DNA of 41,731 nt from Candidatus Moraniibacteriota bacterium. GTDB lineage: Bacteria > Patescibacteriota > Minisyncoccia > Moranbacterales > UBA9337. The notes under the pieces are model-generated. The model saw only the letters and a program-made list of their open reading frames with translations. It ran no database searches and had not been told where the DNA came from. The stretch is taken from assembly GCA_029865125.1 (NCBI GenBank), contig JAOUHN010000004.1, forward strand, positions 1-41,731, given 5' to 3'. This document shows, piece after piece, positions 1 through 39,772 of this stretch (positions are counted from its first letter, which is position 1; each line of letters starts with the position of its first letter). A program made the position numbers and the translations under genes.

Positions 1-1
1 A

Positions 2-1501
2 AAACTTTTGGTGAGTGAGCTTGAAGAAAGAGGAAGAGAGGACTTGGTGGAAAGAATCATTTTCGTCGCCACCCCACAAGCAGGAACCCCAAAGGCCTTG
101 GCAGGACTTTTGCATGGAGACAAGCTTAATATAGCTTCAGGAATAATCCTAGACAAAGACACTGCTCGAGGTTTTGCGGAAAACATGAGTGGAGCGTATA
201 ACCTTCTTCCTTCAAAAAAATATTTTGAAAAAGTGGAAACTCCAGTGATTGAGTTTTCTGATGAAGTGGATGACATTTATGATTTTCAAAAACTATATGG
301 CAAAGACATTGATAGTTTTGATGAAATGAAAAGTTTTCTTTTGGGAGATGATGGACAAAGAAGTGACCCAAGCTTTTCTGACACGGATTCGCCCAATGTT
401 CTTTCAAATAGTTTGTTTTCAAAAGCAACAAACTTGCACAGTGAAATTGATGACTGGGAAGCACCAGAAGGAATGAAAATCATTCAAATTGCTGGATGGG
501 GATTGGACACAATTTCCGGAATCAAATATGACAATTGCGACCTATATTTCTGCAATGGACTTAGTAATTTGGATCGAAAATTAGCTATTGTTCAAGACGG
601 GGATGGCACAGTAGTGACTGCCAGTGCTGTTGTAATGAGTGATGTGGACTATTATGTTGATTTGAAAAAGTATAATCGTCTCGGTGGTTTTCAGGTTAAC
701 AGGGAGCATGCAGATATCCTTGAGATTGACTCACTTCAAGATTTTATTTCAAATCTTATTGAGAATAAGGATGAATTGACTAGTTATATTAAGGATGATA
801 AGCCGGAAGTTAAAAATGAGGATAAAAGATTGCGTCTTAGAATGCATTCTCCAGTGGACGTTCATCTTTTTGACGAGGAAGGGAGCCACACAGGAGTCAC
901 TCAAAACCCAAATCCTGATTCTGATTTGAGGATGTTTGAAGAGGAAATTCCAAATTCGTACTATTGGGAATTCGGAGAAACAAAATATTTGGGGTCTGAT
1001 GGTGATGGTGTGACCAATGTTGATTTGATTGGAACGGGAATGGGAACATTCACATTTGAAATTGATGAGGTTCTGGGAGAAGAAACTGAGAACACAACCG
1101 TTTTTTCTGACATTCCCGTGTTTGAAGGGATGGAGGCGGAGCTTGAAATCAATGAAGGGGAAGTGAGCGCAATGGAAATTGATTTGGAAGGAGATGGAAT
1201 CGTTGATTTTTCATTGAGTCCAGGAGATGATACAATGAATGCGCAAGCTTCACTTCTCATTTTGGAAAAGATTTTGAATGATCTCACTTGTCACAAAAGT
1301 GTGAAACAACCACTTGTCCAAAGAATGATTCAGGTGAAAAGGTTGCTTGAAGATGAAAAAACACAACCTGCAAAAAACATCCTGGAAAGCATGGTCAATC
1401 ATTTGGAAGCTGTGAATAAAAGAAATGACATTGAGAAGCTGGGGATTTCTGAAGAAGAGATTGATGTTTTGATTAATATAATTTCAAAAATAAATAATTA
1501 A
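2..1501 (+). CDS. LCAT/PGAP1-like alpha/beta-hydrolase (putative phospholipase/acyltransferase), 5'-truncated by the window; C-terminal beta-rich region and FIMAH-like helical tail
   Basis: Frame is open from base 2. Motifs ATPQAGTPKA (typical after the nucleophile strand in LCAT-like lipases), GDGTV (catalytic Asp) and REHADIL (catalytic His). The GxSxG elbow would lie just upstream of the window. Confidence 0.75.
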   Translation, partial: KLLVSELEERGREDLVERIIFVATPQAGTPKALAGLLHGDKLNIASGIILDKDTARGFAENMSGAYNLLPSKKYFEKVETPVIEFSDEVDDIYDFQKLYGKDIDSFDEMKSFLLGDDGQRSDPSFSDTDSPNVLSNSLFSKATNLHSEIDDWEAPEGMKIIQIAGWGLDTISGIKYDNCDLYFCNGLSNLDRKLAIVQDGDGTVVTASAVVMSDVDYYVDLKKYNRLGGFQVNREHADILEIDSLQDFISNLIENKDELTSYIKDDKPEVKNEDKRLRLRMHSPVDVHLFDEEGSHTGVTQNPNPDSDLRMFEEEIPNSYYWEFGETKYLGSDGDGVTNVDLIGTGMGTFTFEIDEVLGEETENTTVFSDIPVFEGMEAELEINEGEVSAMEIDLEGDGIVDFSLSPGDDTMNAQASLLILEKILNDLTCHKSVKQPLVQRMIQVKRLLEDEKTQPAKNILESMVNHLEAVNKRNDIEKLGISEEEIDVLINIISKINN

Positions 1502-1511
1502 AAATAAAAAT

Positions 1512-1931
1512 ATGAGTTATAAGAAGAAAATAAGAAATGTGGTGGTTGCATGTTTAATTGCGATTGTTGCTAGCTTGATTTTAGCATTGCCAGAAAATTT
1601 TGGATTGTGCTCCAAGAACGATGACGGATGTATTTATTGGTATATCGATACCTTTGATAATTTAGTGCAGTTTATATTTTATTTTGCACTTGCTATTATT
1701 TTTTCTTTGACTGGAGCATACTTTACAGGAGAGAAAGCTTTTAACGCATGGAAGAAATTTGCAATGATATATTTGTCAATTGCGATTATCCTGGTTTTGA
1801 TTTCACCAACAACTAACATGAACTTTGTTGGTTTTGACAAGGAGCTAACCACAATGTGGCTTGCTGGGATATTTTTTGTGGTGAGTTTGGGGATTATTTT
1901 GGGAAAGAGAGAAAAACAAAGTTCGATTTAA
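1512..1931 (+). CDS. Small 4-TM membrane protein, paralog A1 (putative immunity-like protein)
   Basis: Four hydrophobic segments, Cys pair in the first loop (GLCSKNDDGC), shared C-terminal ELTTMWLAGIFFVVSLGIILGKR; starts 10 bp after the lipase stop. Confidence 0.8.
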   Translation: MSYKKKIRNVVVACLIAIVASLILALPENFGLCSKNDDGCIYWYIDTFDNLVQFIFYFALAIIFSLTGAYFTGEKAFNAWKKFAMIYLSIAIILVLISPTTNMNFVGFDKELTTMWLAGIFFVVSLGIILGKREKQSSI

Positions 1932-1949
1932 AAGGATAAATAAAAAAGT

Positions 1950-2378
1950 ATGAAATCTAAAAAGAAAGAAAGTATTATATTGATGACATCTATTATTCTG
2001 TTCCTTATTGGATATGCGATAGTCTATCCTGAAAACATGGGTATATGTGATAGAAATAATGATGCATGTATTTATAGTATGCCAACTTTTACTATTGGTG
2101 AGCCACTTTTATTTGGGTCAATTTCTTTAGTGGTCGTTTCAATATTTTTATTTTTTACAAATAAAAAATCTTTTGACATTTGGAAGAAATTTTCAATAAT
2201 TTATCTTCCAATTGCAATCATATTGATTTTGATTACCCCAGTTACATCCGGAGGTCTTATAAATATAAACAAAGAACTAACCACAATGTGGCTTGCTGGG
2301 ATATTTTTTGTGGTGAGTTTGGGGATTATTTTCGGAAAAAGAGATCATCACAGCCCGCTTGATTTGGATGAATGCTAG
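1950..2378 (+). CDS. Small 4-TM membrane protein, paralog B
   Basis: Same topology, PENxGxC...C loop, WKKF motif and shared C-terminal block; tail DHHSPLDLDEC. Confidence 0.8.
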   Translation: MKSKKKESIILMTSIILFLIGYAIVYPENMGICDRNNDACIYSMPTFTIGEPLLFGSISLVVVSIFLFFTNKKSFDIWKKFSIIYLPIAIILILITPVTSGGLININKELTTMWLAGIFFVVSLGIIFGKRDHHSPLDLDEC

Positions 2379-2511
2379 AACGAGATTTGAGTCCGTCAGT
2401 TGACGGAGAGATTTGAGATAGAGAAACCAGATTGAGATCATGAAACAGCAATTTAAAAAAAAGAAAAAACATGACACCAGATGACGGCCGTCGGCTCGCG
2501 TCCTGTTTGAA
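2289..2511 (+). repeat. ~220-bp direct repeat, copy 1 (copy 2 at 2911-3133; partial copy at 4523-4612)
   Basis: Near-identical at offset 622. Covers the gene 3' end, the palindrome TCCGTCAGTTGACGGA, GAGATTT-like heptads and the 36-bp palindromic site. Confidence 0.95.
2473..2508. repeat. 36-bp imperfect palindrome, copy 1
   Basis: GACACCAGATGACGGCCGTCGGCTCGCGTCCTGTTT with a central perfect palindrome GACGGCCGTC. Confidence 0.95.
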
Positions 2512-2526
2512 GAAATAATTATTTAA

Positions 2527-2622
2527 GTGAAAAAAAGAAAAGACATTGAGAAACTGGGGATTTCTGAAGAAGAAATTGAGAATCTAATGAAAATTATTAA
2601 CAAAATTAATTTAAATATTTAA
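2527..2622 (+). pseudogene. Orphan fragment homologous to the last ~30 codons of the lipase gene
   Basis: Translates VKKRKDIEKLGISEEEIENLMKIINKINLNI* versus the lipase end VNKRNDIEKLGISEEEIDVLINIISKINN*; directly precedes paralog C. Confidence 0.85.
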
Positions 2623-2628
2623 AAATAT

Positions 2629-3000
2629 ATGAAAAATAAAAAGATTTTATTAAGTGCAGCAATAATTTTGAGTATTATTGCTGGAACGATTTATAAAAAT
2701 AGGTATTTTAATGATCTAGGGACATTTTTATTTTTGTTTTCCTTGGCGTTAATTATAATTTTTATTGTATTATATTTTGTGAAAAATGAAGGGGTATTTA
2801 AGATTTGGAGGAATTTTGCAGGGGTGTATTTATCGATTGCTATTATCTTGGCAGTGATTACTCCTGACACGCCTGGGTTTCTTCGTCCGGATAGTGAAAT
2901 TATATCACTTTGGCTTGCTGGAATATTTTTTGTGGTGAGTTTGGGGATTATTCTTGGAAAGAGAGATCATCACAGCCCGCTTGATTTGGATGAATGCTAG
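2629..3000 (+). CDS. Small 4-TM membrane protein, paralog C
   Basis: Hydrophobic segments, FKIWRNF motif, shared WLAGIFFVVSLGIILGKR block and DHHSPLDLDEC tail. Confidence 0.8.
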   Translation: MKNKKILLSAAIILSIIAGTIYKNRYFNDLGTFLFLFSLALIIIFIVLYFVKNEGVFKIWRNFAGVYLSIAIILAVITPDTPGFLRPDSEIISLWLAGIFFVVSLGIILGKRDHHSPLDLDEC

Positions 3001-3133
3001 AACGAGAATTGAGTCCGTCAGTTGACGGAGAGATTTGAGATAGAGAAACCAGATTGAGATCAGAAAATAGTAATTTAAAAAAAAGAAAAAACATGACACC
3101 AGATGACGGCCGTCGGCTCGTGTCCTGTTTGAA
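2911..3133 (+). repeat. ~220-bp direct repeat, copy 2
   Basis: Matches 2289-2511. Confidence 0.95.
3095..3130. repeat. 36-bp imperfect palindrome, copy 2
   Basis: GACACCAGATGACGGCCGTCGGCTCGTGTCCTGTTT, ending 8 bp before the PaaX-like ATG. Confidence 0.95.
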
Positions 3134-3138
3134 AGGAT

Positions 3139-3702
3139 ATGTATAGAATTGGACCAGTTCAAAAAAAGATCATAGTTACTCTTGTGGGAGGTGTGGTGTT
3201 AGGATCGACTTCATCTCCAAGGCAATATTTCAAGGTATTGCGTGAAATAAAAAGAGAGTGGAAAAACATTAATTCTAGAAGTTTTTCTCGTTCTATGCAA
3301 AGGCTTTCTCGTGAAAAACTAATTGAAAAGAAAATGCTTCCAAATGGAAATTTTAAGCTGGAGTTAACTAAAAAAGGAAAAAATGAAGCAAGAAAGCTGA
3401 GTTTATTGGGGAGTAGTGTTGCGTGCAAGAAGCCAAAAAAGTGGGATGGGAAATGGAGAATTGTTATTTTTGATATTCCTGAAAAAGATCGAATATTCAG
3501 AGGTATTTTGAGAGAACATTTGTATGAATTAAAATTTGCTAAATTGCAACAAAGTGTTTTTGTTTCTCCGCACCCCTTTGAGAGAGCTATTCTTGAATTG
3601 ACGAGGCTATATTCTGCTGAGCGCTATGTGCGAGTAATTACAGCTTTGAAAATTGACAACGAACAAGAAATTAAAAAGAAATTTCAAGGAATAATAAAGT
3701 AG
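3139..3702 (+). CDS. PaaX-like protein (winged HTH plus Cas2-like/ferredoxin-fold domain)
   Basis: wHTH-like RLSREKLIEK...LELTKKG followed by WDGKWRIVIFDIPE and LQQSVFVSP, characteristic of the PaaX central/Cas2-like domain common in CPR. Confidence 0.8.
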   Translation: MYRIGPVQKKIIVTLVGGVVLGSTSSPRQYFKVLREIKREWKNINSRSFSRSMQRLSREKLIEKKMLPNGNFKLELTKKGKNEARKLSLLGSSVACKKPKKWDGKWRIVIFDIPEKDRIFRGILREHLYELKFAKLQQSVFVSPHPFERAILELTRLYSAERYVRVITALKIDNEQEIKKKFQGIIK

Positions 3703-3738
3703 GACACCAGATGACGGCCGTCGGCTCATGTCCTGTTT
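3703..3738. repeat. 36-bp imperfect palindrome, copy 3
   Basis: GACACCAGATGACGGCCGTCGGCTCATGTCCTGTTT, starting immediately after the PaaX-like TAG stop. Confidence 0.95.
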
Positions 3739-3773
3739 TGAGAAGTAATAAAATTTATTAAACAATAAGGAAT

Positions 3774-4160
3774 ATGAATTATAAGAAAAAGATATTAATA
3801 ATGTTGCTAATATCTGTAATTACTGGAATTTTTTCTTTTGGTACCTGTTTATCTTTATCGACAAGACATTATTGCAGTCCAGGTGAATTTGAAGCAATAT
3901 TTAATTTTTTGGCCCTTTTCTCGATCGCTTTTGGCACTATTTCCATAGTATTATTATTTACTAAAGGAGCATTTGATAGTTGGAAGTTATTCGCAATTAT
4001 TTATTTGATTGTGTCCATATTTCTTGTATCTGTAACATCAAACATGGGTGGAATGTTGGGAATTGATAAAGAATTTGTTACAATGTGGCTTGCTGGGATA
4101 TTTTTTGTGGTGAGTTTGGGGATTATTCTGGGAAAGAGAGAAAAACAAAGTTCGCTTTAA
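3774..4160 (+). CDS. Small 4-TM membrane protein, paralog D
   Basis: Cys pair in the loop, AFDSWKLF motif, shared C-terminal block with tail EKQSSL. Confidence 0.8.
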   Translation: MNYKKKILIMLLISVITGIFSFGTCLSLSTRHYCSPGEFEAIFNFLALFSIAFGTISIVLLFTKGAFDSWKLFAIIYLIVSIFLVSVTSNMGGMLGIDKEFVTMWLAGIFFVVSLGIILGKREKQSSL

Positions 4161-4177
4161 AAGGATAAATAAAAAAT

Positions 4178-4612
4178 ATGAGTTATAAGAAGAAAATCAG
4201 AAATATAATAATTGCATGTTTAATTGCGATTGTTGCTAGCTTGGTTTTAGCATTGCCAGAAAATTTTGGATTATGTTCAAAGGGCGATACTGCTTGTGTT
4301 AGGAAATTCATTCACCGTTTTGATAATATAATACAGACAACGTTTTATTTTGCACTTGCTATTATTTTTTCTTTGACTGGAGCATACTTTACAGGAGAGA
4401 AAGCTTTTAACGCATGGAAGAAATTTGCAAGGATATATTTGCCAATTGCGATTGTTCTGGTTTTGATTTCACCAACAACTAACATGAACTTTGTTGGTTT
4501 TGACAAAGAACTAACCACAATGTGGCTTGCTGGGATATTTTTTGTGGTGAGTTTGGGGATTATTTTCGGAAAAAAAGATCATCACAGCCCGCTTGATTTG
4601 GATGAATGCTAG
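4178..4612 (+). CDS. Small 4-TM membrane protein, paralog A2 (near-duplicate of 1512-1931 with a divergent loop)
   Basis: Nearly identical to A1 except the loop segment and the C-terminal tail. Confidence 0.85.
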   Translation: MSYKKKIRNIIIACLIAIVASLVLALPENFGLCSKGDTACVRKFIHRFDNIIQTTFYFALAIIFSLTGAYFTGEKAFNAWKKFARIYLPIAIVLVLISPTTNMNFVGFDKELTTMWLAGIFFVVSLGIIFGKKDHHSPLDLDEC

Positions 4613-4619
4613 GGAGGCT

Positions 4620-4715
4620 AATGAATAATTAAGAATGAATAATTAATAATGAATCAGAAACTCATAAATTCCTAAAATCCTAAATTCCTAAATTCCTAAA
4701 ATCCTAAATTCCTAA
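4620..4715. repeat. Short tandem repeats: AATGAATAATTAA(G/T) x2.5, then TAAA(T/A)TCC x6
   Basis: Read directly; the octamer array spans 4665-4712, just before the M23 start. Confidence 0.9.
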
Positions 4716-4722
4716 CAACAAT

Positions 4723-5244
4723 ATGGCATATCCGCACACACATGAACTGGGGCTTCCTTTGAAAGATTATAGAGTGAATGGTTCTCCGTTTGGAAAAGAC
4801 TGCACCTATGAAGGGGTGAATTGGGGGATTCATCTTGGAGAAGATGTCATCTGTGAAGGTGGAACAAAGATTTTTTCAATTGGAAGAGGAAGGGTCGTGC
4901 ATTGTCAGCTTCACGCAGGAACGAAAGAAAAAGGAAATTGGGGATGGGTTGCAATCATTGCGCACAAGAATCCAAAAACAAAAAAAGTTTTCTTCTCGAT
5001 CTGTGGTCACATGGGACGAGTTTTTGTTTCAAAAGGGGACACGGTTGAATTGGGTCAAAAAATTGGAACCATCGGCGCCTCAAACACCCCAGAAAACGGT
5101 TTCTGGGAAACACCCCATCTTCACTTCGCAATTTTCACCGGACCCTGGCAAAGAAAAATCCTCCCCGGATATTTCAAACCAGAACACAAAAGAACCAAGC
5201 TGGAATGGTGGGTGAGTCCGAAGGAGTTTATTGAGAGATATTAA
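4723..5244 (+). CDS. M23 (LytM-like) metallopeptidase, stand-alone catalytic domain
   Basis: HxxxD (HLGED), VSKGDTVELGQKIG and HxH (PHLHF) motifs; no obvious signal peptide. Confidence 0.9.
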   Translation: MAYPHTHELGLPLKDYRVNGSPFGKDCTYEGVNWGIHLGEDVICEGGTKIFSIGRGRVVHCQLHAGTKEKGNWGWVAIIAHKNPKTKKVFFSICGHMGRVFVSKGDTVELGQKIGTIGASNTPENGFWETPHLHFAIFTGPWQRKILPGYFKPEHKRTKLEWWVSPKEFIERY

Positions 5245-5256
5245 TTTTCAAACTGA

Positions 5257-6618
5257 ATGGAGAATCAGGTATATAAAAAATTAAAAGAGAGCATTTCTGA
5301 TATAAGAAGAGATGAGCTTCCGAAAATGGTAGATCAGCTAATTCGCTTAGGCGCTTTTGAGGTGACTTTTCCAGTTTTTAAAAAAGGCTTGATTTTAAAA
5401 AATCCTGGTTTTAATACTAAAAAAGGTTGCTCTATAAAGTCGGGTTGTCATGGTGATTCTGAAACAAAAGATGGGAAGATAAGAATTGAGTATAGCGTTC
5501 AAGAAGACTGGAGAGGAAAAGTTAAAGCAGAGATAAAAAGATTTAATGAATCAAATGAAAAGGATAAGGTTGAAACTTTTGTATTTGCCACAAATCAATA
5601 CTTGGACAATAAGGAGATTGAGTATCAAGAGAATGGAAAAAAAATAAAAAAAAGTATTGAAGAATATATTAAAGATAAAACAGGGGTTGGTAATGTTATT
5701 GTTTTAGGATTGGATGATTTACTTTCACCGCTAAGTGATCCAGAATTCTCTGGTGTGAGAAGGGATTTTTTAAAAATCGAAAATGAATTTTTTATAAATA
5801 GTCAACAATATTTAGATGGACTTGAAAAGTATAGGCGATATAGAATAAGTGATGGTGAAAAAAAGTCTGTCAGCGGTGCAAGTAAATTATTGCAGCAAGT
5901 AAGTAGTTTATCATGGAAAATTAAAAATGCAGAATGTAAGATAATTTTTATTAATGGTACAAGCGAGAATTTTAAAGAATTGTTGCGCTTAGTGGGCAAT
6001 GCTGCCAATGTCATTAAGTGTGAAGATGATCAAGAGATGGTTTTTATAAGATATCCTAGAAAAGATTTCACTATAAGGCAAGAGCACATTGATGAGATTA
6101 CGGGGAATGGTATTAAATATATTACAATATGGGATCCTGAGAAAATTAATAATCTAAATGATTATTCTCAGTTTGAGCAAGGGCAAAATAAAATGGTTTT
6201 TGTTTGTGCAAACAATAAGGAGTCTAGCAAAATTATTAATGAAATGAATTTAGAAGAGGGTGAATATGAAATTATAGAAGCTTTTATGGGTGATACCGAA
6301 AGCACCTTTGATATTGATAATTATGAAAAGGGATTAGATATAAAAAAGGATTATTCAGGAAATGCTGTAAAATATCAAGCGATGACTTATTTGTATGGGC
6401 CAATCAATATTAATGATAGTGAGATAAGAGTTAAAATTCGTAAATTAGTGGGGATAAATAAAAAAGAGGAGGAATTTATATTAAAAAACCTAATACAAAA
6501 AGATGCTTTGAATAGAGTTGGAAACTTGGTTAGTGTTAGCGATTTTAAACTGGGTAAGAATATTCTAGAAAAATTAGTGAGTAGTGGTGAAATAGATATA
6601 AATAATTTAATGGTTTAA
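5257..6618 (+). CDS. Putative restriction-endonuclease-like N-terminal domain plus degenerate P-loop NTPase-like region and C-terminal wHTH-like region
   Basis: GDSETKDGKIRIEYSVQEDWRGKV...FVFATNQ resembles Mrr-like REase domains fused to STAND NTPases. IIFINGTSENFKELL and YITIWD sit where Walker A and B would be, but there is no GKT. Confidence 0.5.
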   Translation: MENQVYKKLKESISDIRRDELPKMVDQLIRLGAFEVTFPVFKKGLILKNPGFNTKKGCSIKSGCHGDSETKDGKIRIEYSVQEDWRGKVKAEIKRFNESNEKDKVETFVFATNQYLDNKEIEYQENGKKIKKSIEEYIKDKTGVGNVIVLGLDDLLSPLSDPEFSGVRRDFLKIENEFFINSQQYLDGLEKYRRYRISDGEKKSVSGASKLLQQVSSLSWKIKNAECKIIFINGTSENFKELLRLVGNAANVIKCEDDQEMVFIRYPRKDFTIRQEHIDEITGNGIKYITIWDPEKINNLNDYSQFEQGQNKMVFVCANNKESSKIINEMNLEEGEYEIIEAFMGDTESTFDIDNYEKGLDIKKDYSGNAVKYQAMTYLYGPININDSEIRVKIRKLVGINKKEEEFILKNLIQKDALNRVGNLVSVSDFKLGKNILEKLVSSGEIDINNLMV

Positions 6619-6622
6619 CCAT

Positions 6623-9025
6623 ATGAGAGATAATTACAATAAAAAGTTTTTGAGTAAATTGGCTGCACTAAATAATGAAGTTGCAAATAAGCAATTAGTC
6701 GTTGTTGCGGTTGAATTTAGGAAAATTGTTTCGAAGCTTAGAGATAATGATAAAATTTATGACACCCTGGATTTATTAGAGGAATTTGTACATAGGGCAA
6801 CGAAGCAAGCTTTTGAAATAATTGATTTGGTTATGGAAAATAAATATCCTACTAAGAAATATAAGTCTAAATTTGGGGAATATTCAGGGAAGAGTTATGA
6901 GGATTTAGTCTTGAAATGTGTGGGAATATTGGAAATAATTCGATATTATGATAAGGATATTTTTATGAAGCTGATTGATATTCAAGAAAGAGTTAAAAAA
7001 TATGAATCTGTTCAGAAGAAAATCAAGGAAGTTTTGGAGAAGTATTCTAAATATAACTACCATGCGATTAGCAATCCAAAAATAGGATATGGAGTGCAAA
7101 GGAAAATTCTTGATGAAATTTTGAAATGGACTCCTCAGCAAAAAAAGAAAATATTTGATTTGATTGAAATTGTAACTCGTGAGTTTTTGAAGAGTTCTTT
7201 TGAGGGAACTTCAATGAAGGATTATAATACCATGGTTTTTCAGAGAGGGTCTCTTGGCGTGAATAAGTTTTTGAAAAATATTCGAAGAGAAACGATTGAT
7301 ATGCTTGTGGAGATGTTTGAAGGTACTAGAAGTGAAAATGTAAAATTGAGAATATTGAATATTTTGAATGAGGCGACAAGAAAGCCTATGGAGGGATATG
7401 ATGACAAAATGGTTGAAATGGTTGAAGGTGATGTTGAATATCTTGTGAAAATTTATGATCAATTTGCGTTTGGAAAAAATGGTAAGATTTCAAGTTTTCC
7501 GATTGTTAAGGAGATAGAAGATAAGCTATATTTTTTGAAAAAGGCTTATGGAGAAAATATTCCCGAGATTGAATTACTGAAAAAAAGAATTAATGAAAGT
7601 GAAGAATATCAATTTTTGAAATTACTTGTTAAGGATCATAATGATTTGGCCATTAGTGAAAAAGACTTAAATGATGAGATAAAAGAGTTGGTTAATTCTA
7701 TTGATGAGGATGATTTGGGTAGATATTGTGATGCACTGGAGAAGTTATCCAGTTATGTCAAAAGGAGATTGATTGATGAATGGGAATTAAGTCATGCAAG
7801 GAAATTTTGTTTTGAATTAGCAAAGAATAAACCAGATTTAGCAGGTAAGATTTTGTCTGAAATTATTTTTAATGGAAAGGAATTGAATCATTTTGTGTCA
7901 CAGTTTTTGTGTGGTTTTCGTGCTGAAAATCATACAAGAGAATGGGATAAATTCATTGGGCCAATTGTTGATAAAAAAAACATTGAGATGCTAAAAGTTA
8001 TTCCTTGGTCAGTTTCTTGTATCGTGGAACATGTTGATAGGTATGTAAGAGAGAATGATATAAGGCTGTTGAATGATATCGTGAAGGGGAATAATAAATT
8101 TTCTTTCTTGAGGGATGTTAAGAATGATGTGAGTAAGACAAATTTCCATGTAATCTTAATTGAAGCGTTGGCTGTTATTTGGAAGAAGGATAAGAAGAGA
8201 ATTGAGAAAATAATTATTGAAGAATTGAAGCAGAATAGTGAGGATCAAGGTTGTATTTCTGCATTATTGAATAATTTGGATTTTTCTTCTTATAGGAAAG
8301 TTCTTGATCTTTTAGAATTTAGTGATGGAAATATAAAGTTTATTATTGGTTTATTGGTTGAAATAGATAAGTTGGATCATCGAATGCAGGAGTTGATGGT
8401 TATTCTTAGTGAAAAATATTATGAGAATGTCATGAATGTTTTCATGAAACGGATTAATAATCGACAAAATATGAAAGAAAAGGGCAATTATGAAGCAGTT
8501 CCATATCATTTCAATCAAGAGCTGAAAGAGGCTATTGTGAATGGAGAAGAATATGAAAAGTTTATGTTGGAGTGGATTGAGTTGGCAAAGAAAGGAAGTT
8601 ATATTTTTTGCATGGATACTGGAAGACTTTTGAGAAGAGTTGATGGAGTGAAAAAGGAATATATTTTGAAAGTTTTGGATAAGAATAGCACAGAAAAGGA
8701 AATTGAAAATATTTTGAAAATGTTTACTTTTGATGTTCCTGATTATGAAATTTTGATTGGGATTATAAAGATGACTGACAAGAAGGAGATCTGGGGAAAC
8801 ATTGAAGGTGTGTTGGCTCAAACAGGGGTTGTGTCTGGTGAGCATGGAATTTCAGATAGCTATAAGCGGAAGGTAAAAGATTTTGAGAAATATAAAAAGG
8901 ATAAGGATGAGAATGTCAAAAAGTTTGCTGAAGGATTTGTTGATAATATGAATCAAAGAGCTAAGGAGGAAAGAAAAAGAGAGGATGAAGAAATTGCGCT
9001 TCGAAAAATTGAATTTGAAGGGTGA
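6623..9025 (+). CDS. Large alpha-helical repeat protein, likely partner of the upstream ORF
   Basis: 800 aa, all-helical amphipathic pattern, 4-bp gap to the upstream gene. C-terminal GVVSGEHG...DENVKKFA...RAKEERKRE resembles tails of large REase-NTPase-helical proteins. Confidence 0.55.
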   Translation: MRDNYNKKFLSKLAALNNEVANKQLVVVAVEFRKIVSKLRDNDKIYDTLDLLEEFVHRATKQAFEIIDLVMENKYPTKKYKSKFGEYSGKSYEDLVLKCVGILEIIRYYDKDIFMKLIDIQERVKKYESVQKKIKEVLEKYSKYNYHAISNPKIGYGVQRKILDEILKWTPQQKKKIFDLIEIVTREFLKSSFEGTSMKDYNTMVFQRGSLGVNKFLKNIRRETIDMLVEMFEGTRSENVKLRILNILNEATRKPMEGYDDKMVEMVEGDVEYLVKIYDQFAFGKNGKISSFPIVKEIEDKLYFLKKAYGENIPEIELLKKRINESEEYQFLKLLVKDHNDLAISEKDLNDEIKELVNSIDEDDLGRYCDALEKLSSYVKRRLIDEWELSHARKFCFELAKNKPDLAGKILSEIIFNGKELNHFVSQFLCGFRAENHTREWDKFIGPIVDKKNIEMLKVIPWSVSCIVEHVDRYVRENDIRLLNDIVKGNNKFSFLRDVKNDVSKTNFHVILIEALAVIWKKDKKRIEKIIIEELKQNSEDQGCISALLNNLDFSSYRKVLDLLEFSDGNIKFIIGLLVEIDKLDHRMQELMVILSEKYYENVMNVFMKRINNRQNMKEKGNYEAVPYHFNQELKEAIVNGEEYEKFMLEWIELAKKGSYIFCMDTGRLLRRVDGVKKEYILKVLDKNSTEKEIENILKMFTFDVPDYEILIGIIKMTDKKEIWGNIEGVLAQTGVVSGEHGISDSYKRKVKDFEKYKKDKDENVKKFAEGFVDNMNQRAKEERKREDEEIALRKIEFEG

Positions 9026-9040
9026 TTTCAAGTAGTGCAG

Positions 9041-9108
9041 TGGTGGCAAAATCAAATCAAAAAAGTTCTCATTCCCAGGTTTTGGGTGGGGACTTTTTGT
9101 TTTTTGTG
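9041..9108. repeat. Intergenic repeat Y, copy 1 (hairpin, terminator-like)
   Basis: AAATCAAAAAAGTTCTCATTCCCAGGTTTTGGGTGGGGACTTTTTGTTT; other copies at 10511, 11498 and 12409. Confidence 0.9.
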
Positions 9109-9123
9109 GGGGGGGTGCAGTGC

Positions 9124-9201
9124 AAACCCTTCTTTAATTCCTCCCCTTGACCCGTCTTCATTGAGTGTTTCGCCGAGGCAAGATGGAAAGAGGAGGAGAT
9201 A
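9124..9201. repeat. REP-like repeat Z, copy 1
   Basis: Shares TCCTCCCCTTGACCCGTCT (19 bp identical), CGCCGAGG and a GGAAAG..GAGGAG..ATAC end with 35996-36076. Confidence 0.8.
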
Positions 9202-9252
9202 CACGAGTTTCAACGGCTCATACGAAAGTGGAGCGTTGTTTTGGCTTGAATC

Positions 9253-9281
9253 TTGACTTTTTTGTGGTTTTTAGATACTAT
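9253..9281 (+). promoter_or_regulatory. Sigma70-like promoter
   Basis: TTGACT-17 bp-TACTAT upstream of ORF 9341. Confidence 0.65.
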
Positions 9282-9340
9282 TATGAGTCCTGAAGAAGAG
9301 GTGGAATTTAACAAAAATTTGTTTCCAAGGAGAGATCGAA

Positions 9341-9679
9341 ATGGCTCAAGACAGTGATAACGCAATGTACCGAATGATCATTGACTACATCAATGGAATT
9401 CGCATGGTGCAAGATGAGCAACTCAACTCTTTCATTGAGGTGTTTGACAAGAGTGTTAATTGGTCAACAGAAGATGCTATTGTTGGCTCGGAGGGAGTGA
9501 AAGCAGCTCTTTCGCGTCCCATGACATTGAAAGAAATTGAAGAATTTTTTCGGAAGCAGACTAGTGCCGTGTGTGCCATCGTTGATCCGGAATTTGCCGG
9601 CACCAAAAATCAGTGCCTTGGAATTTTTATCAGGGCTCTAAATAAAGAGGATTTATTTTCTGAGCCAGTGCTGTTCTAG
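9341..9679 (+). CDS. Hypothetical protein
   Basis: Has its own promoter, an AAGGAG SD and a downstream hairpin; no recognisable motif. Confidence 0.7.
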   Translation: MAQDSDNAMYRMIIDYINGIRMVQDEQLNSFIEVFDKSVNWSTEDAIVGSEGVKAALSRPMTLKEIEEFFRKQTSAVCAIVDPEFAGTKNQCLGIFIRALNKEDLFSEPVLF

Positions 9680-9696
9680 GATATTTTCAGGATTAG

Positions 9697-9737
9697 GAGA
9701 CCTTTTGTAGCCCGAGTGTTGCAATGGGTCCCTTTTT
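9697..9737 (+). terminator. Putative intrinsic terminator
   Basis: GGAGACC...GGTCCC stem followed by a T-run. Confidence 0.5.
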
Positions 9738-9764
9738 ATTTCTAGCTTCGAATGGTTTTGAGTG

Positions 9765-9796
9765 AAATAAAAAGGATTAGGTATCTTTTTGATTTT
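9765..9796. repeat. Intergenic motif X, copy 1
   Basis: AAATAAAAAGGATTAGGTATCTTTTTGAT; related copies at 10478, 11411 and 12378. Confidence 0.7.
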
Positions 9797-9943
9797 TGCG
9801 ACATAATCTCTCATACATAGAATTATGATGCAAATCGTTCGTGATTCCTTGACAGTCTATTTGAAAAATGAGAGCATTTAGGAAGAACTTTTTGAATTTA
9901 ATTTTGCAGATTACTGATCATAAAACATAAGGGGAGGTAGTTT

Positions 9944-10396
9944 ATGTCCAATGCGGATTGCTTGGGAGGCATGTGTCGGCATTATGAAGGAATAGGATGT
10001 GCGATAATCAATCCAACTAAGGGCTTTCAGCTCTCCTTGAAAGAAGGAAAGGTTTTCGAGTATTGCTCTGGGAGAGATTCTTGTGGAAGATCTTTGGATT
10101 TCGGGACTGGCCGCACTTATTTGGTAGACAAATATAGTGGGAGATTACACAACTCCAGTGATTGGGATTCTGGTTGGATTGATTTCCTTGAAGAATCAAC
10201 CGGAAAAAATCTTTCGGAAACTGACAGGGGGTTTATTGATGCTCTCAGAAAGGAGTATGCAACGCCCGGAACTGAAATGCCAAGGTTTATGGTGATTGTA
10301 GAGAAATTTTCAAAAGAGCTGAAAGAATCCTCTTTTTCTGGCATTGAAGAAGTGCTCAAATGGGCAGGTCTTCCAGGTGTGTCTGGTGGCGGTTGA
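9944..10396 (+). CDS. Hypothetical protein with a Cys-rich N-terminus
   Basis: Strong SD (GGGGAGGT), TTGACA at 9849 and a downstream terminator. Confidence 0.7.
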   Translation: MSNADCLGGMCRHYEGIGCAIINPTKGFQLSLKEGKVFEYCSGRDSCGRSLDFGTGRTYLVDKYSGRLHNSSDWDSGWIDFLEESTGKNLSETDRGFIDALRKEYATPGTEMPRFMVIVEKFSKELKESSFSGIEEVLKWAGLPGVSGGG

Positions 10397-10435
10397 AGAG
10401 GTGTGTCTATAGTTCGCGAGGTTAGTGAATAGGAG

Positions 10436-10470
10436 CTGCCGGAGGAGAATACTTCTTCGGCAGTTTTTTT
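10436..10470 (+). terminator. Intrinsic terminator
   Basis: CTGCCGGAGGAG-aata-CTTCTTCGGCAG followed by T7. Confidence 0.75.
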
Positions 10471-10477
10471 ATTTCCT

Positions 10478-10630
10478 AAATAAAAAGTGTTCAGGTACCT
10501 TTTTGATCCACAGTGAAAAAATCAAAATCAAAAAAGTTCTCATTCAGGTTTTGGGTGGGGACTTTTTGTTTTTTGTGAAAGCTTAACTTTTGTTTCTTGG
10601 GGTGGTATGATTTAATTAGTTTGAGGTTTA
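10478..10630 (+). repeat. X + Y + promoter module upstream of the SDR gene
   Basis: X (10478-10507), Y (10511-10577), then TTAACTTTT...TGGTATGATTTAATTAGTTT; homologous to 12378-12524. Confidence 0.85.
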
Positions 10631-10655
10631 TTAAATTGTTAAATGAAAATGAATT

Positions 10656-11393
10656 ATGAAATTTGAAGATAAGATAGTTTTGGTTACTGGGGGTGGCAGA
10701 GGAATTGGAGCAGAGACAGCAAAGAACTTTGCGCGAGAAGGTGCTACTGTGATTATTAATTACGTTTCCGATGAAGATTCAGCAAAGAAAGTGCTTGATG
10801 ATATTGACGGGAAGGGTGAGATTGTGAAAGCTGATGTTAGTGATGAAGCGCAAGTGGATGAAATGTTTGAAAAAATTGAAAAGTCTTATAGTAAGATTGA
10901 CATTCTAGTGAATAGCGCAGGAATTGTTTCTCCTAAATCATTTGCAGAGCTTTCAGTGGGTGACTGGCGAAAAACTCATGCCGTTAATTTGGATTCTGTG
11001 TTTTTATGTTGCAAAAAAGCTGTACCTTTGATGAATAGTGGAGGATCTATAGTGAATGTCGCGTCAATAAGAGGGTTGTTTGATCAAGGGAGACCAGGAG
11101 TGATTGATTATTCAAGTTCAAAGGCAGCAGTGATCAGCTTCACAAAGACACTAGCAAAAGAAGTGGCTCCTGATATTAGGGTGAACTCAGTTTCTCCAGG
11201 GGTGACAAATACGGATATTGCTAAGGGATTTTCAAAGGAATTACTTGAAAAGTTTGTTGATGACATTTATTTGAGAAGGATCATTGAGCCTCAAGAAGTT
11301 GCAGATGCAATATTGTTTTTATCTTCCAAGGAAGCCAGTGCTATAACAGGTGTCAATTTAATGGTGGATGGTGGGCAAAGTCTGGGTAAGTAG
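10656..11393 (+). CDS. Short-chain dehydrogenase/reductase (FabG-like)
   Basis: TGGGRGIG, NSAG, YSSSK (YxxxK), RVNSVSPG and VDGG motifs. Confidence 0.95.
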   Translation: MKFEDKIVLVTGGGRGIGAETAKNFAREGATVIINYVSDEDSAKKVLDDIDGKGEIVKADVSDEAQVDEMFEKIEKSYSKIDILVNSAGIVSPKSFAELSVGDWRKTHAVNLDSVFLCCKKAVPLMNSGGSIVNVASIRGLFDQGRPGVIDYSSSKAAVISFTKTLAKEVAPDIRVNSVSPGVTNTDIAKGFSKELLEKFVDDIYLRRIIEPQEVADAILFLSSKEASAITGVNLMVDGGQSLGK

Positions 11394-11410
11394 TATGTTG
11401 CTAGTAATAG

Positions 11411-11438
11411 ATAAAAAAAGTCAGGCATCTTTTTGATT
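11411..11438. repeat. Intergenic motif X, copy 3
   Basis: ATAAAAAAAGTCAGGCATCTTTTTGATT. Confidence 0.7.
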
Positions 11439-11457
11439 AACTTGTGGTTATAGACAG

Positions 11458-11484
11458 GGATCCTGAATCAAGTTCAGGATGACA
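11458..11484. repeat. REP/MITE half element of the GTCAT-terminated family
   Basis: GGATCCTGAATCAAGTTCAGGATGACA hairpin; same GATGACA terminus as the element at 39459-39680. Confidence 0.7.
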
Positions 11485-11497
11485 AGGTAGTGGCGGA

Positions 11498-11560
11498 TGG
11501 TGGCAAAACCAAAATCAAAAAAGTTCTCATTCCCATGTTTGGGGTGGGGACTTTTGTTTG
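11498..11560. repeat. Intergenic repeat Y, copy 3
   Basis: TGGTGGCAAAACCAAAATCAAAAAAGTTCTCATTCCCATGTTTGGGGTGGGGACTTTTGTTT, followed by TATAAT at 11582. Confidence 0.9.
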
Positions 11561-11616
11561 CAACATTTCTTTTGAAAGGGGTATAATGAAGGAAAGGTAA
11601 ATTAAATTCAAGGAAT

Positions 11617-12378
11617 ATGAAAGCAGAAGAATTGGTTTTGATTGAAAAAGGAAATTTGGAGGTGGTGTTGGATGACAATAAAATTGTTTTGCCTGATTCA
11701 ATTCAAAAGGATATCGATGAGCATTGGGAGGGGTTGTTGAGAGATGGCAACAATTTCAAAAGAGGAGAGGTTTTCACAATCAAAAGTGTTGAAAAGAAAG
11801 ACAGAGGTACAGTTGTTGAATTGAGTGTTTCGGATTATGCTCACTATTTGTACACTCAAAGAGTTGGATTGGAAAACAAATATGCTTGCAAAAATTTGCA
11901 CACTTCATGCTTGATCGAAACATGCGATGAAAAACTTGTTTTTGGGAGAATGGGAAGACACACTGCCATGTCTGGAGTCATTCAATGTGCTGGAGGAGGT
12001 TTGGACAATGATGACATCAAGGGGAAGAATGTTGATTTGGAGAACAACATCAAAAGAGAATTGATGGAGGAGGTTGGAATTGAAGCAAAAAACAAAGAAA
12101 TCGTTGATGAGCTCAGAATCAAATATTTGAAATATAGTCTGGACACCAATAAGGTGGCAGCTATTTTTGTTTTGAAGTTGAAAATTGATTCGCAAGAATT
12201 TATGCGCTTGTACGACAGTTTTGAAAGTGATTGCAAAAAGAAAGGTGAGTTGCCTGAATTTGAAGAAATTGTGTGTTTGCCAAAAAACAGATCAGAAGTT
12301 GAGGAATTTGTTCAAAAAGAAAGGGATCATCTGAATCATTACATGGAAGTTTTGCTGAAAAGCGAGGCTTCAGAATGA
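11617..12378 (+). CDS. NUDIX-family hydrolase
   Basis: GGGLD...IKRELMEEVGI Nudix box with an insertion. Confidence 0.8.
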   Translation: MKAEELVLIEKGNLEVVLDDNKIVLPDSIQKDIDEHWEGLLRDGNNFKRGEVFTIKSVEKKDRGTVVELSVSDYAHYLYTQRVGLENKYACKNLHTSCLIETCDEKLVFGRMGRHTAMSGVIQCAGGGLDNDDIKGKNVDLENNIKRELMEEVGIEAKNKEIVDELRIKYLKYSLDTNKVAAIFVLKLKIDSQEFMRLYDSFESDCKKKGELPEFEEIVCLPKNRSEVEEFVQKERDHLNHYMEVLLKSEASE

Positions 12379-12524
12379 AACCAATGGGTTAGTTATCTTT
12401 TTGTTTAGCAGTGAAAAAATCAAACCAAAAAAGTCCTCATTTCAGTTTTTGGATGGGGCTTTTTGTTTTCTAGTCTTTAACTTTTATCCCTAAGGATGGT
12501 ATAATTGAATTAGTTTAGGGTAAT
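12378..12524 (+). repeat. X + Y + promoter module upstream of ORF 12542
   Basis: Degenerate X, then CAGTGAAAAAATCAAACCAAAAAAGTCCTCATT...GGATGGGGCTTTTTGTTT, then TTAACTTTT...TGGTATAATTGAATTAGTTT. Confidence 0.85.
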
Positions 12525-38997: not shown

Positions 38998-39051
38998 CAA
39001 ACAATTGCTCGAATGAGCGTTGAATATATAAAAAATAAAATAACAAAAAAT

Positions 39052-39354
39052 ATGGAAAAACAAAAATTGATTTGCCATGATTGCAAAAAAGAGTTGAAGA
39101 AGGGGGATGAGTATGTGAATTATACTCAAGATGGAGAAGCATATTTAATAAAATGTCGAGAATGCTATGAAAAAGATCCTGTAATAAAGAACTTTAAAGA
39201 ATGTGATGTATATTCAAGAGTGGTCGGATTTCACACTCCGATTGGAAGATGGAACAAAGGAAAAAGTGCTGAATGGAAAGACCGAAAGACATTTGAAATA
39301 GGGGAAATGAAAGATGATGAAAAAGATTCTGATGATAAGGATAGCTGCAAATAA
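39052..39354 (+). CDS. nrdD: Separate NrdD C-terminal glycyl-radical domain with a Zn ribbon
   Basis: CHDC...CREC plus VYSRVVGFHTP..WNKGK..EW.DR; start may be 39013 or 39052. Confidence 0.9.
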   Translation: MEKQKLICHDCKKELKKGDEYVNYTQDGEAYLIKCRECYEKDPVIKNFKECDVYSRVVGFHTPIGRWNKGKSAEWKDRKTFEIGEMKDDEKDSDDKDSCK

Positions 39355-39680: not shown

Positions 39681-39772
39681 AAGTATGATCGTGTGAAAAA
39701 CTTTTAGTTTTGAATTATAATTTCATATTCCTAAATTCCTAAATTCGTATAATCACATATTCCTAAACAATA

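Follow-up and report, generated by a model that had tools for sequence, protein, structure and literature searches.

The window, the whole stretch of 41,731 nucleotides that was analysed (Candidatus Moraniibacteriota bacterium, contig JAOUHN010000004.1), carries a small gene for a PaaX-like protein, here termed mini-PaaX, which is flanked on both sides by members of a palindromic repeat family and is neighboured by membrane-protein paralogs. The features of the locus are the following.

2284..2529, plus strand: first copy of a duplicated module (family D3), 92% identical to 2906-3151
2473..2508, plus strand: palindrome copy 1, 1 mismatch, fold -11.8 kcal/mol, repeat families D3 and D5
2527..2628, plus strand: orphan 3' tail of an LCAT-like gene (family D9), 77% identical to 1412-1513
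2629..3000, plus strand: membrane-protein paralog between copies 1 and 2, an ORF with the shared C-terminal ...LAGIFFVVSLGIILGKRDHHSPLDLDEC
2906..3151, plus strand: second copy of the duplicated module (family D3), ending 13 nt inside the PaaX-like ORF
3095..3130, plus strand: palindrome copy 2, 0 mismatches, 42 bp when taken as 3089-3130, fold -15.7 kcal/mol
3139..3702, plus strand: mini-PaaX gene, 187 aa, PF20803 PaaX_M, TAG at 3700-3702
3703..3738, plus strand: palindrome copy 3, 1 mismatch, fold -15.0 kcal/mol
3774..4160, plus strand: membrane-protein paralog 3' of copy 3, an ORF and a candidate co-regulated neighbour

A search with the 36-mer allowing up to 3 mismatches returned exactly three matches in the window, all on the plus strand, while none of 100 dinucleotide-preserving shuffles of the window contained any match. 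The three imperfect palindromes at 2473, 3095 and 3703, with periods of 622 and 608 bp, are thereby confirmed as a preliminary description of this DNA had given them; a fourth copy of the 36-mer lies on contig C23 of the same genome. The outer AAACA stem of that description is present at copies 1 and 2, the former spanning approximately 2467-2510 with its A/T arms, but not at copy 3, where the common part is just 36-38 nt. The ORF coordinates bear out the tight fit of the PaaX-like gene, which starts 8 nt after copy 2 and is followed, directly after its TAG, by the first base of copy 3. The dyad of copy 2 is located 29 nt upstream of the ATG and has 11 of 15 arm pairs, and copy 3 (the downstream site at +15 of the same locus, L005) has 10 of 15. 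Copy 3 ends at the -35-like hexamer of a promoter-like match at 3738-3766 (TTGAGA-17-AACAAT, a consensus match only), which ends 7 nt upstream of the ATG of the membrane-protein gene at 3774.

Copies 1 and 2 are carried by a duplicated segment of 246 nt, the first copy of which consists of the 3' end of a membrane-protein gene (1950-2378) and an intergenic region with a small palindrome, TCCGTCAGTTGACGGA, and with palindrome copy 1; positions 2379-2528 and 3001-3133 are 95.5% identical over 133 nt. A riboswitch or small RNA in this 130-nt intergenic module was considered and rejected, there being no match to any covariance model of Rfam 15 (positions 1-12000, E up to 1) and fold z-scores of -0.65 and -1.89. 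The membrane-protein paralog at 2629-3000 matches no Pfam family. The orphan LCAT tail shows the 622-bp unit to be a recombination mosaic, and its period results from a tandem duplication of the membrane-protein gene and the intergenic module, so that it is no cassette; copy 1 thus exists because a 622-bp segment of LCAT tail, membrane-protein gene and intergenic module was duplicated in tandem. This corrects the earlier proposal of gene-sized units as far as the first unit is concerned.

The mini-PaaX protein belongs to the PaaX family in the broad sense, both by its match to PaaX_M (residues 100-174; E 6e-22 and 78 bits, the cut-off being 24) and by a winged helix followed by a middle domain in a PaaX-like fold. 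The predicted structure, which is of moderate confidence with a mean pLDDT of 72, has a winged helix (helices 6-21, 27-40 and 46-58 and a beta wing) and then a Cas2-like ferredoxin-fold domain at 106-169 of beta-alpha-beta-beta-alpha-beta topology. The best fold match of the model is PaaX 8a39 from E. coli (E 2e-4), and the further matches are 3kfw (2.4e-3), 3l09 (3.7e-2) and Cas2 chains (E 0.04-0.3), with TM-scores that are low (0.28-0.40). Searched against the sequences of solved structures, the family profile gave only weak matches, to HxlR/MarR-type winged helices and Cas2. The protein stays below threshold for the PaaX equivalog TIGR02277 (34 bits against 264.55) and for the cas2 family TIGR01573 (20.3 bits against 24.5), and a profile search gave no PaaX_C match, so that no effector-binding domain could be named. 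No paa enzyme families and no Cas families were present among the window ORFs scanned. Asp112 and Glu115 of a Cas2-like motif, FDIPE, are invariant across homologues, and the aspartate may correspond to the catalytic Asp of Cas2. From these sequence features we read the 187-residue protein as a truncated PaaX-type regulator that appears to lack the effector-binding C-terminal domain.

The layout of a gene between palindromes was compared at 90 complete homologous loci of the same order and many genera, a site being defined as a CGRYCG-centred palindrome that has 10 or more of its 15 arm positions paired and lies no farther than 170 bp from the ends of the gene. At least one such palindrome occurs at 78 of the 90 loci (upstream at 59, downstream at 62, on both sides at 43), and thus the flanking palindromes for which the preliminary description had asked among relatives are indeed present, with protein residues that covary with palindrome positions. 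Palindromes of any kind are also concentrated near the gene ends, at 2.77 per kb against 0.27 per kb at a greater distance within these loci. Across the loci, the palindromes are flanked by A-rich sequence on their 5' side and by T-rich sequence on their 3' side (positions 19-21). On the sense strand the centre reads GGTC in 36 cases and GACC in 13, an asymmetry that operators do not explain and that counts against such a reading of the repeats. In 24 of 89 loci the ATG is preceded, at a distance of exactly 6 nt, by the end of a -10-like hexamer, which often falls within the upstream palindrome's 3' arm; this spacing suggests leaderless transcription in relatives. The earlier remark that the arrangement leaves no room for a promoter is thereby answered for relatives; in the window, no -10-like element was seen in or after copy 2. 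The lack of that element and the degeneracy of the window's own sites, which with 10-11 of 15 arm positions paired rank with the most degenerate ones compared, likewise count against operators. With 3466 clusters at 50% identity (E up to 1e-10), the protein family is large, and its members are mostly 180-200 aa long. A literature search, with subscription journals and supplementary files outside its coverage, found no description of a PaaX/Cas2-like family or of PaaX in Patescibacteria, and the gene-between-own-palindromes layout is common to a large protein family of ultra-small bacteria that itself is apparently undescribed.

Approximately 20 palindromes centred on ACGGCCGT are found genome-wide, and the window repeats belong to this set. 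The genome has two PaaX-like genes, 62% identical, and both are bracketed by palindromes which share a GACGGCCGTC centre and have different arms. Several of the dispersed palindromes have no PaaX-like gene adjacent. In about 8 of the 20 the arms are unlike those at either paralog (three of a short type on C50, a type shared by C54, C63 and C69, one on C1 and one at C50:24937), and a third PaaX-like gene was not found in this 92% complete genome, an observation that counts against the operator reading. The 36-mer of the window had no match in 60 relatives, as expected if the arms are lineage-specific. The ACGGCCGT word was counted in 301 genomes, and only the contrast within the window's own family was used because its shortness and its dependence on base composition make the word unfit for a general test; there, the 4 genomes in which no homolog was found have 0, 0, 1 and 3 words and the 17 with a homolog a median of 9, a contrast between few genomes that are all kin.

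Protein and site also vary together in detail. Residue 118 lies in the first helix of the Cas2-like domain. Of the 66 loci with Arg118, 59 have A at DNA position 4, 1 has G and 6 are undecided, while all 9 loci with Lys118 have G there; all 5 independent pairs, on a tree built without that column, change in the same direction, five pairs being so few that the sign test cannot fall below p 0.0625. Arg47, at the start of the winged-helix recognition helix, is accompanied by GT at outer positions 17-16 in 27 of 34 loci, with 3 of 3 pairs on supported branches in the same direction; for both residues, the columns were chosen after a scan of all columns and the loci are kin. Pairing is frequent at position 4 (92%) and at positions 8-17 (80-93%) but reaches only 57-74% at positions 5-7, and the mismatches at positions 4-17, when summed, comprise 69 G-T, 55 A-C and 173 others, so that no RNA wobble signature is apparent. 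This profile fits a duplex site that would be read in two blocks. The arms change between genomes yet stay palindromic, a behaviour that a hairpin would explain equally well and that in this respect counts against operators.

Taken together, the three 36-bp repeats are probably cognate duplex binding sites, that is, operators, of the 187-residue protein encoded at 3139-3702. The preliminary description had offered operators or substrates of the winged-helix Cas2-like protein as one of its readings, and the comparative evidence, namely the layout at 78 of 90 loci and the covariation between residues and palindromes, lends support to such a role. In the model that we infer, a two-fold symmetric dimer of mini-PaaX would sit on duplex DNA, with the winged helices reading the outer arms some 12-17 bp from the dyad and the first helix of the Cas2-like domain reading the conserved ACGGCCGT centre. 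The upstream site would lie at or just 3' of the transcription start of the gene, a position from which the protein may be expected to repress its own gene. As the downstream site and copy 1 precede accessory membrane-protein paralogs, these neighbours are probably co-regulated.

Alternatively, the palindromes could act as hairpins or cruciforms, in ssDNA or RNA, which the Cas2-like domain recognises and perhaps cuts and which serve as break or crossover points for block exchange, in the manner of REP/RAYT or Ssn/NTS elements, selfish or domesticated, without a classical recombinase. Consistent with this are arms that differ between genomes and stay complementary, the dispersed palindromes without an adjacent PaaX-like gene, the invariant acidic residues of FDIPE and the precedent of NTS-ssnA-NTS, a small nuclease gene between its own hairpins (PMC11893778). 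The homology between close relatives points the same way, since it often ends at or inside palindromes, which makes a role in recombination or segment exchange conceivable. Of 18 locus pairs whose proteins are 80% or more identical, only 2 keep their homology for 500 nt or more downstream, and it often ends within approximately 120 nt of the stop; L006 and L038, 98% identical, diverge 8 nt past the palindrome, and L007 and L008 just after the palindrome centre, so that their arms are left unlike. Such breaks hint at a role in recombination and count against operators. For proteins that are 80-90% identical, however, the usual divergence of non-coding DNA would also leave little homology in the flanks, and in the deletion variant on C23, the only local rearrangement open to reconstruction, the junction is a microhomology within the PaaX-like ORF and not the palindrome. 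The poor pairing beside the apex would moreover place the conserved centre in a large loop in many copies, with no reason for it to be self-complementary; the mismatches lack a wobble bias, the RNA folds of the window copies do not stand out from those of shuffled sequences (z -0.9 to -1.8), and we know of no nuclease activity in the middle domains of PaaX-family proteins. On this evidence the hairpin explanation appears rather unlikely. A bolder form, in which ACGGCCGT palindromes are crossover points that swap accessory genes, with the Cas2-like domain at the dyad as an architectural or cutting factor, would amount to an integrase-free cassette exchange in ultra-small bacteria and a possible relative of an ancestral partnership between Cas2 and palindromic repeats; we regard it as speculative and doubtful.

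It is quite improbable that the repeats are intrinsic, possibly bidirectional, terminators or insulators copied along with neighbouring DNA and devoid of a specific link to the PaaX-like genes. Every copy follows a gene end, an A-run precedes copies 1 and 2 and a short T-run follows all three, in keeping with the A-rich and T-rich flanks across the loci, and 24% of the downstream copies are followed by a T-rich tail, with 6 or more T among the 10 nt after the copy. That share is nonetheless low, and only 7% of the upstream copies have a T-rich tail; a terminator scan of positions 1-12000 included none of the three copies, the base of the stem is AT-rich with GC at the apex, and in 22 of 89 loci the distance from the upstream copy to the ATG is 24-36 nt. 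Nor do terminators require a centre whose sequence is kept from genus to genus and changes together with a residue of the protein. Still further from the evidence is an integron-type array with attC-like sites, whose units would be promoterless cassettes inserted by a site-specific recombinase. Imperfect palindromes in the same orientation at gene boundaries, an ORF filling the space between two of them and mismatches kept in all four copies do recall such arrays, but the sites, at 36-42 bp, are shorter than attC, outer RYYYAAC/GTTRRRY boxes were not seen by eye, and a single gene family stands between palindromes in 43 of 90 loci from many genera. No tyrosine recombinase (PF00589) is present in the window, the single match in the genome being on contig C59, and no Y1/HUH transposase (Y1_Tnp, PF01797) was matched in the 92% complete genome; together with the tandem-duplication mosaic of the first unit and the C23 junction lying off the palindrome, these results do not sustain the earlier suggestion of integron-like cassette recombination sites, which we consider highly improbable.

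If the repeats are indeed operators of mini-PaaX, the family would provide naturally paired small DNA-binding proteins and 40-bp sites whose specificity is readable from sequence, an instance of a Cas2-fold domain that reads DNA bases, and a common regulator at the edges of variable gene islands in candidate-phyla-radiation bacteria. Gene regulation in these bacteria is, to our knowledge, almost unknown. The case also serves as a warning that such genes, when labelled 'Cas2' or 'PaaX', are neither.

The arrangement recalls several known systems. With REP/BIME elements and their RAYT (TnpA-REP) proteins it shares dispersed intergenic palindromes, some of which lie on either side of a gene; in contrast, Y1_Tnp is missing here, the copies number about 20 rather than hundreds, and there is no terminal tag of GTAG or CGTC, as REP sequences reportedly have. 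Integron attC sites have R''-L''/L'-R' boxes, with RYYYAAC/GTTRRRY as the outer ones, and are at least about 57 bp long, and integron cassettes carry diverse cargo. Like them, the repeats are imperfect palindromes at gene boundaries, in one orientation and with a tightly fitting ORF between, but here one conserved gene family lies between the sites, no integron integrase is found and the first of the two units arose by tandem duplication. The ferredoxin-like fold, a beta1 motif ending in Asp and Cas2 chains among the fold matches relate the middle domain to Cas2, from which it differs in being fused to a winged helix, in scoring below the cas2 cut-off and in that no Cas family was matched among the window ORFs scanned. 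CRISPR repeats are spaced about 30-40 bp apart, unlike the window repeats at 608-622 bp, and a CRISPR-like array was rejected as a candidate on this spacing of roughly 600 bp and the lack of cas genes.

The Ssn GIY-YIG single-strand nucleases are encoded by a small gene between two hairpin repeats of its own (NTS/SRM); further repeats are dispersed near other genes, and from genome to genome the repeat varies along with the protein (Chenal et al. 2025, PMC11893778). The small gene between its own repeats, the dispersed extra copies and the covariation are thus features in common. However, mini-PaaX has no GIY-YIG domain, the published SRM pattern matches nowhere in the window or in the genome, and what is conserved here is the centre and not a 5' CGTC tag, with a pairing profile that favours a duplex reading.

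The closest likeness in fold is to PaaX, the phenylacetyl-CoA-responsive repressor of the paa catabolon in E. coli and Pseudomonas (8a39, 3l09), which has the same order of an N-terminal winged helix and a Cas2-like middle domain and of which 8a39 is the best fold match. According to a review, PaaX binds TGATTC-N27-GAATCA, approximately 39 bp, and represses its own promoter (PMC9493321), so that the length of the site, about 36-42 bp, and the inversion of its outer half-sites are further shared traits. Mini-PaaX differs in its length of 187 aa against about 305, in lacking a PaaX_C match and in having no paa genes nearby. Unlike that of PaaX, its candidate site has a conserved ACGGCCGT centre that covaries with a residue of the Cas2-like domain, and its gene has candidate sites of its own on either side.

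A search of the window for the 36-bp palindrome, tolerating up to three mismatches, returned exactly three matches, all on the + strand and spaced by 622 and 608 bp, and none in 100 dinucleotide-preserving shuffles. The palindrome is imperfect. The 187-aa ORF of the PaaX-like protein (mini-PaaX) starts 8 nt past copy 2, its stop codon abuts copy 3, and its product matches Pfam PaaX_M ("PaaX protein central Cas2-like domain") with an E-value of 6e-22; together these results bear out the preliminary description of repeats at gene boundaries with a PaaX-like ORF fitted between the second and third copies.

Features of the repeat region and the second mini-PaaX locus
2473-2508, + strand: palindrome copy 1, from the 36-mer search
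2527-2628: orphan 3′ tail of an LCAT-like gene between copies 1 and 2, resembling 1412-1513
2629-3000: membrane-protein paralog between copies 1 and 2
3095-3130, + strand: palindrome copy 2, from the 36-mer search
3139-3702, + strand: mini-PaaX ORF
3703-3738, + strand: palindrome copy 3, from the 36-mer search
Contig C13 of the same genome, 233-817: second mini-PaaX paralog, bracketed by same-centre palindromes

Of the two gene-sized units initially proposed, only the 608-bp one has the "palindrome, gene, palindrome" structure. Judged by its composition, the 622-bp unit is a tandem duplication mosaic and not an inserted cassette, since it involves a 246-nt duplicated segment (2284-2529 versus 2906-3151, 92% identical) and encloses the orphan LCAT tail and the membrane-protein paralog. 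Each half of this duplication, one with copy 1 and the other with copy 2, contains the 3′ end of a gene for a small membrane protein, a 95-nt spacer that holds another small palindrome, and the 36-mer. A paralogous locus on contig C23 carries a fourth 36-mer, with the opening ~32 nt of the PaaX-like ORF after it; this fragment is joined to an LCAT tail, with ~18 nt of imperfect microhomology between the two, which places the rearrangement endpoint inside the ORF and not in the palindrome. The C23 locus has the same make-up as window positions 1-4612, namely an LCAT-like (PF02450) gene followed by five paralogous membrane-protein genes of 123-144 aa that all have a common C-terminal segment, along with orphan LCAT 3′ tails, and this has the appearance of a displacement array, an effector accompanied by immunity-like genes. 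The 10-mer GAGATTTGAG, found 59 times in the 1.03-Mb genome, stands on both sides of the 16-bp palindrome TCCGTCAGTTGACGGA at 2385-2420 and 3007-3042. A tandem 8-bp TTCCTAAA-type repeat occupies 4636-4716, upstream of an M23 peptidase gene, and a related stretch is found 35 kb away at 39711-39767.

The integron-like cassette system that had been suggested is not supported, as the 622-bp unit is a duplication, no recombinase is adjacent, and the only tyrosine recombinase in the genome is located on another contig. No Y1 transposase was found in the genome, and an Ssn/SRM system was rejected as the published SRM pattern (PMC11893778) has no matches in the window or the genome. With its mraZ-mraW-ftsI-murE cell-wall cluster, ftsA, ftsZ, hisS and nrdD, the window is ordinary chromosomal sequence. 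Matches to the anaerobic ribonucleotide reductase NrdD fall on two consecutive ORFs (36892-38994 and 39013-39351), of which the second accounts for the final ~50 positions of the profile; the gene may be split or frameshifted, or the second ORF may be a glycyl-radical piece of its own.

A role of the palindromes in recombination may nevertheless be considered, as suggested by comparison of homologous loci. Among 18 locus pairs with protein identity of at least 80%, downstream homology extends for at least 500 nt in just two, and in most it stops within ~120 nt of the stop codon; ordinary non-coding divergence explains part of this loss, though not the case of L006 and L038, whose proteins are 98% identical and which diverge 8 nt beyond the downstream palindrome. 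In the L007/L008 pair (92%), divergence just past the centre results in palindromes with unlike arms. Several palindromes with unlike left and right arms are present at these two loci and conserved between their genomes, G124 and G172, the homology of the units ending just past the centre of the downstream palindrome.

The protein itself is neither PaaX proper nor Cas2. The former is ruled out by a TIGR02277 score of 34 bits (cut-off 264.55), the lack of a PaaX_C domain in the domain scan and of paa genes among the window ORFs scanned, and the latter by a TIGR01573 score of 20.3 bits (cut-off 24.5) and the absence of CRISPR context around the gene. In fold, the predicted structure (mean pLDDT 72) comes closest to E. 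coli PaaX (8a39, E 2e-4), Rv0674 (3kfw) and 3l09, with Cas2 proteins next. A search of 1.84 billion proteins with the family profile retrieves 3466 cluster representatives (E ≤ 1e-10), the best 150 of which are mostly 180-200 aa long, and the literature searched, of limited coverage, yielded no published description of the family.

Just two PaaX-like genes, sharing 62% identity, are present in the source genome. The palindromes around the C13 gene have the same centre as those of the window and other arms, and overlap its start and stop codons. At this gene the family's usual ATG position reads ATA, and the sole in-frame ATG stands five codons earlier, within the 3′ arm of the palindrome on the upstream side. 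All 12 occurrences of the 10-mer GACGGCCGTC in the genome (36.5% GC) are centres of longer palindromes, and 9 of the 27 even palindromes scoring at least 12 are ACGGCCGT-centred. The census gives ~20 ACGGCCGT-centred sites, with two sites on contig C3 set aside that look like tRNA genes by their T-arm-like sequence.

Arm types of the palindromes, by contig of the source genome
C47 (three), C23 (one): window arm type, with a perfect 42-bp relative on C50 (three)
C13 (three), C17, C56: second arm type
C50 short type (three), C54/C63/C69 type, C1, C50:24937: types without a nearby PaaX-like gene

At C50:24100-25730, three repeated intergenic modules, each with 24-bp and perfect 42-bp ACGGCCGT-centred palindromes, separate small minus-strand ORFs, with no PaaX-like gene nearby.

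The proposed link between flanking palindromes and PaaX-like genes holds for both paralogs of the genome and extends to other genomes. Mini-PaaX homologs occur in 129 of 301 sampled genomes of the same order. The locus set comprised 30 loci from the homolog search, 60 more picked from its match list and the C13 locus, or 90 after one running off its contig was dropped. Of the 90 loci, 78 have one or more palindromes with a CGRYCG centre and 10 or more of the 15 arm positions paired, no further than 170 bp from an end of the gene (upstream in 59, downstream in 62, on both sides in 43). Palindromes of any centre scoring at least 10 are denser close to the gene ends (2.77 per kb) than in the remainder of these loci (0.27 per kb). 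The upstream dyads peak at 26 or 29 nt from the ATG and the downstream ones at 8, 13 or 18 nt past the stop, and the consensus site is GTRWCATAAT-NNN-ACGGCCGT-NNN-ATTATGWYAC. The arms are alike inside one locus and differ from genome to genome; the window's own 36-mer is absent from 60 relatives. In the window's family, ACGGCCGT words number 0, 0, 1 and 3 in four genomes where no homolog was found versus a median of 9 in 17 homolog-bearing ones, a contrast between few genomes, all kin.

The predicted covariation of repeats with the protein was also recovered in an alignment of 86 proteins, from which rows shorter than 175 aa, incomplete or with internal stops and the C13 paralog were excluded, compared with the consensus half-sites of the 75 site-bearing loci. 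With Arg118, DNA position 4, counted from the dyad, is A in 59 of 66 loci (G in one, undecided in six), and with Lys118 it is G in 9/9. Residue 118 differs in five independent pairs on a tree built without that column, and the base shifts in the same direction in all five (sign test p 0.0625, the floor for five pairs). Arg47 goes with GT at positions 17-16 in 27 of 34 loci, and the 3/3 pairs on supported branches agree. In the predicted structure, residue 118 lies within the first helix of the Cas2-like domain and residue 47 at the opening of the third helix of the winged helix, the recognition helix by profile alignment to HxlR-type regulators. As the loci are kin and the columns were chosen post hoc from a scan of the full alignment, the residue-base covariation is suggestive, short of proof.

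Whether such palindromes act as hairpins or as duplex sites can be judged from their pairing. A hairpin would most need the pairs next to its apex, yet positions 5-7 pair worst (57-74%, versus 92% at position 4 and 80-93% at 8-17); a dimer on duplex DNA would read the centre block and two outer blocks, making pairing at 5-7 dispensable. Mismatches at positions 4-17, summed over sites, are G-T in 69, A-C in 55 and other in 173 cases and thus have no wobble bias as expected of RNA. The three window copies fold as RNA at -11.8 to -15.7 kcal/mol, with z of only -0.9 to -1.8 against shuffles, and none is listed by the terminator scan; across loci, T-rich tails are found behind 7% of the upstream copies and 24% of the downstream ones. 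A 56-nt terminator-like hairpin repeat occurs after successive genes at 9048-9103, 10517-10572, 11504-11559 and 12414-12469, two of the four copies overlapping terminator-scan matches. A symmetric dimer would explain the two-fold symmetry of the conserved centre; asymmetric centres on the sense strand favour GGTC over GACC (36 versus 13), a bias left unexplained.

Of 89 loci, 24 have a -10-like hexamer whose 3′ end is exactly 6 nt upstream of the ATG, compared with ~2-9 at most other offsets and 12-16 at offsets 0, 1, 11 and 14, and an AGGA-type ribosome-binding core is present in only 5 of 89. In many of the 24 loci this hexamer, TACAAT after TGN, forms the outer portion of the palindrome 3′ arm, where the protein, when bound, would lie over a leaderless gene's promoter. 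The mini-PaaX gene of the window has no such hexamer. A promoter-like match at 3738-3766, by consensus only, has its -35-like hexamer where copy 3 ends, and stops 7 nt upstream of the next membrane-protein gene.

The repeats are probably cognate duplex binding sites of the mini-PaaX encoded between them, with one extra copy from local duplication, and the protein would act on them as a self-repressor; the site-gene-site layout, the common centre and the link between residue and base favour these predicted sites, which the preliminary description had offered as an operator alternative. A review describes E. coli PaaX as a repressor of its own promoter that binds TGATTC-N27-GAATCA and blocks RNA polymerase (PMC9493321), and the window repeats resemble the site described there in length and in their inverted outer half-sites.
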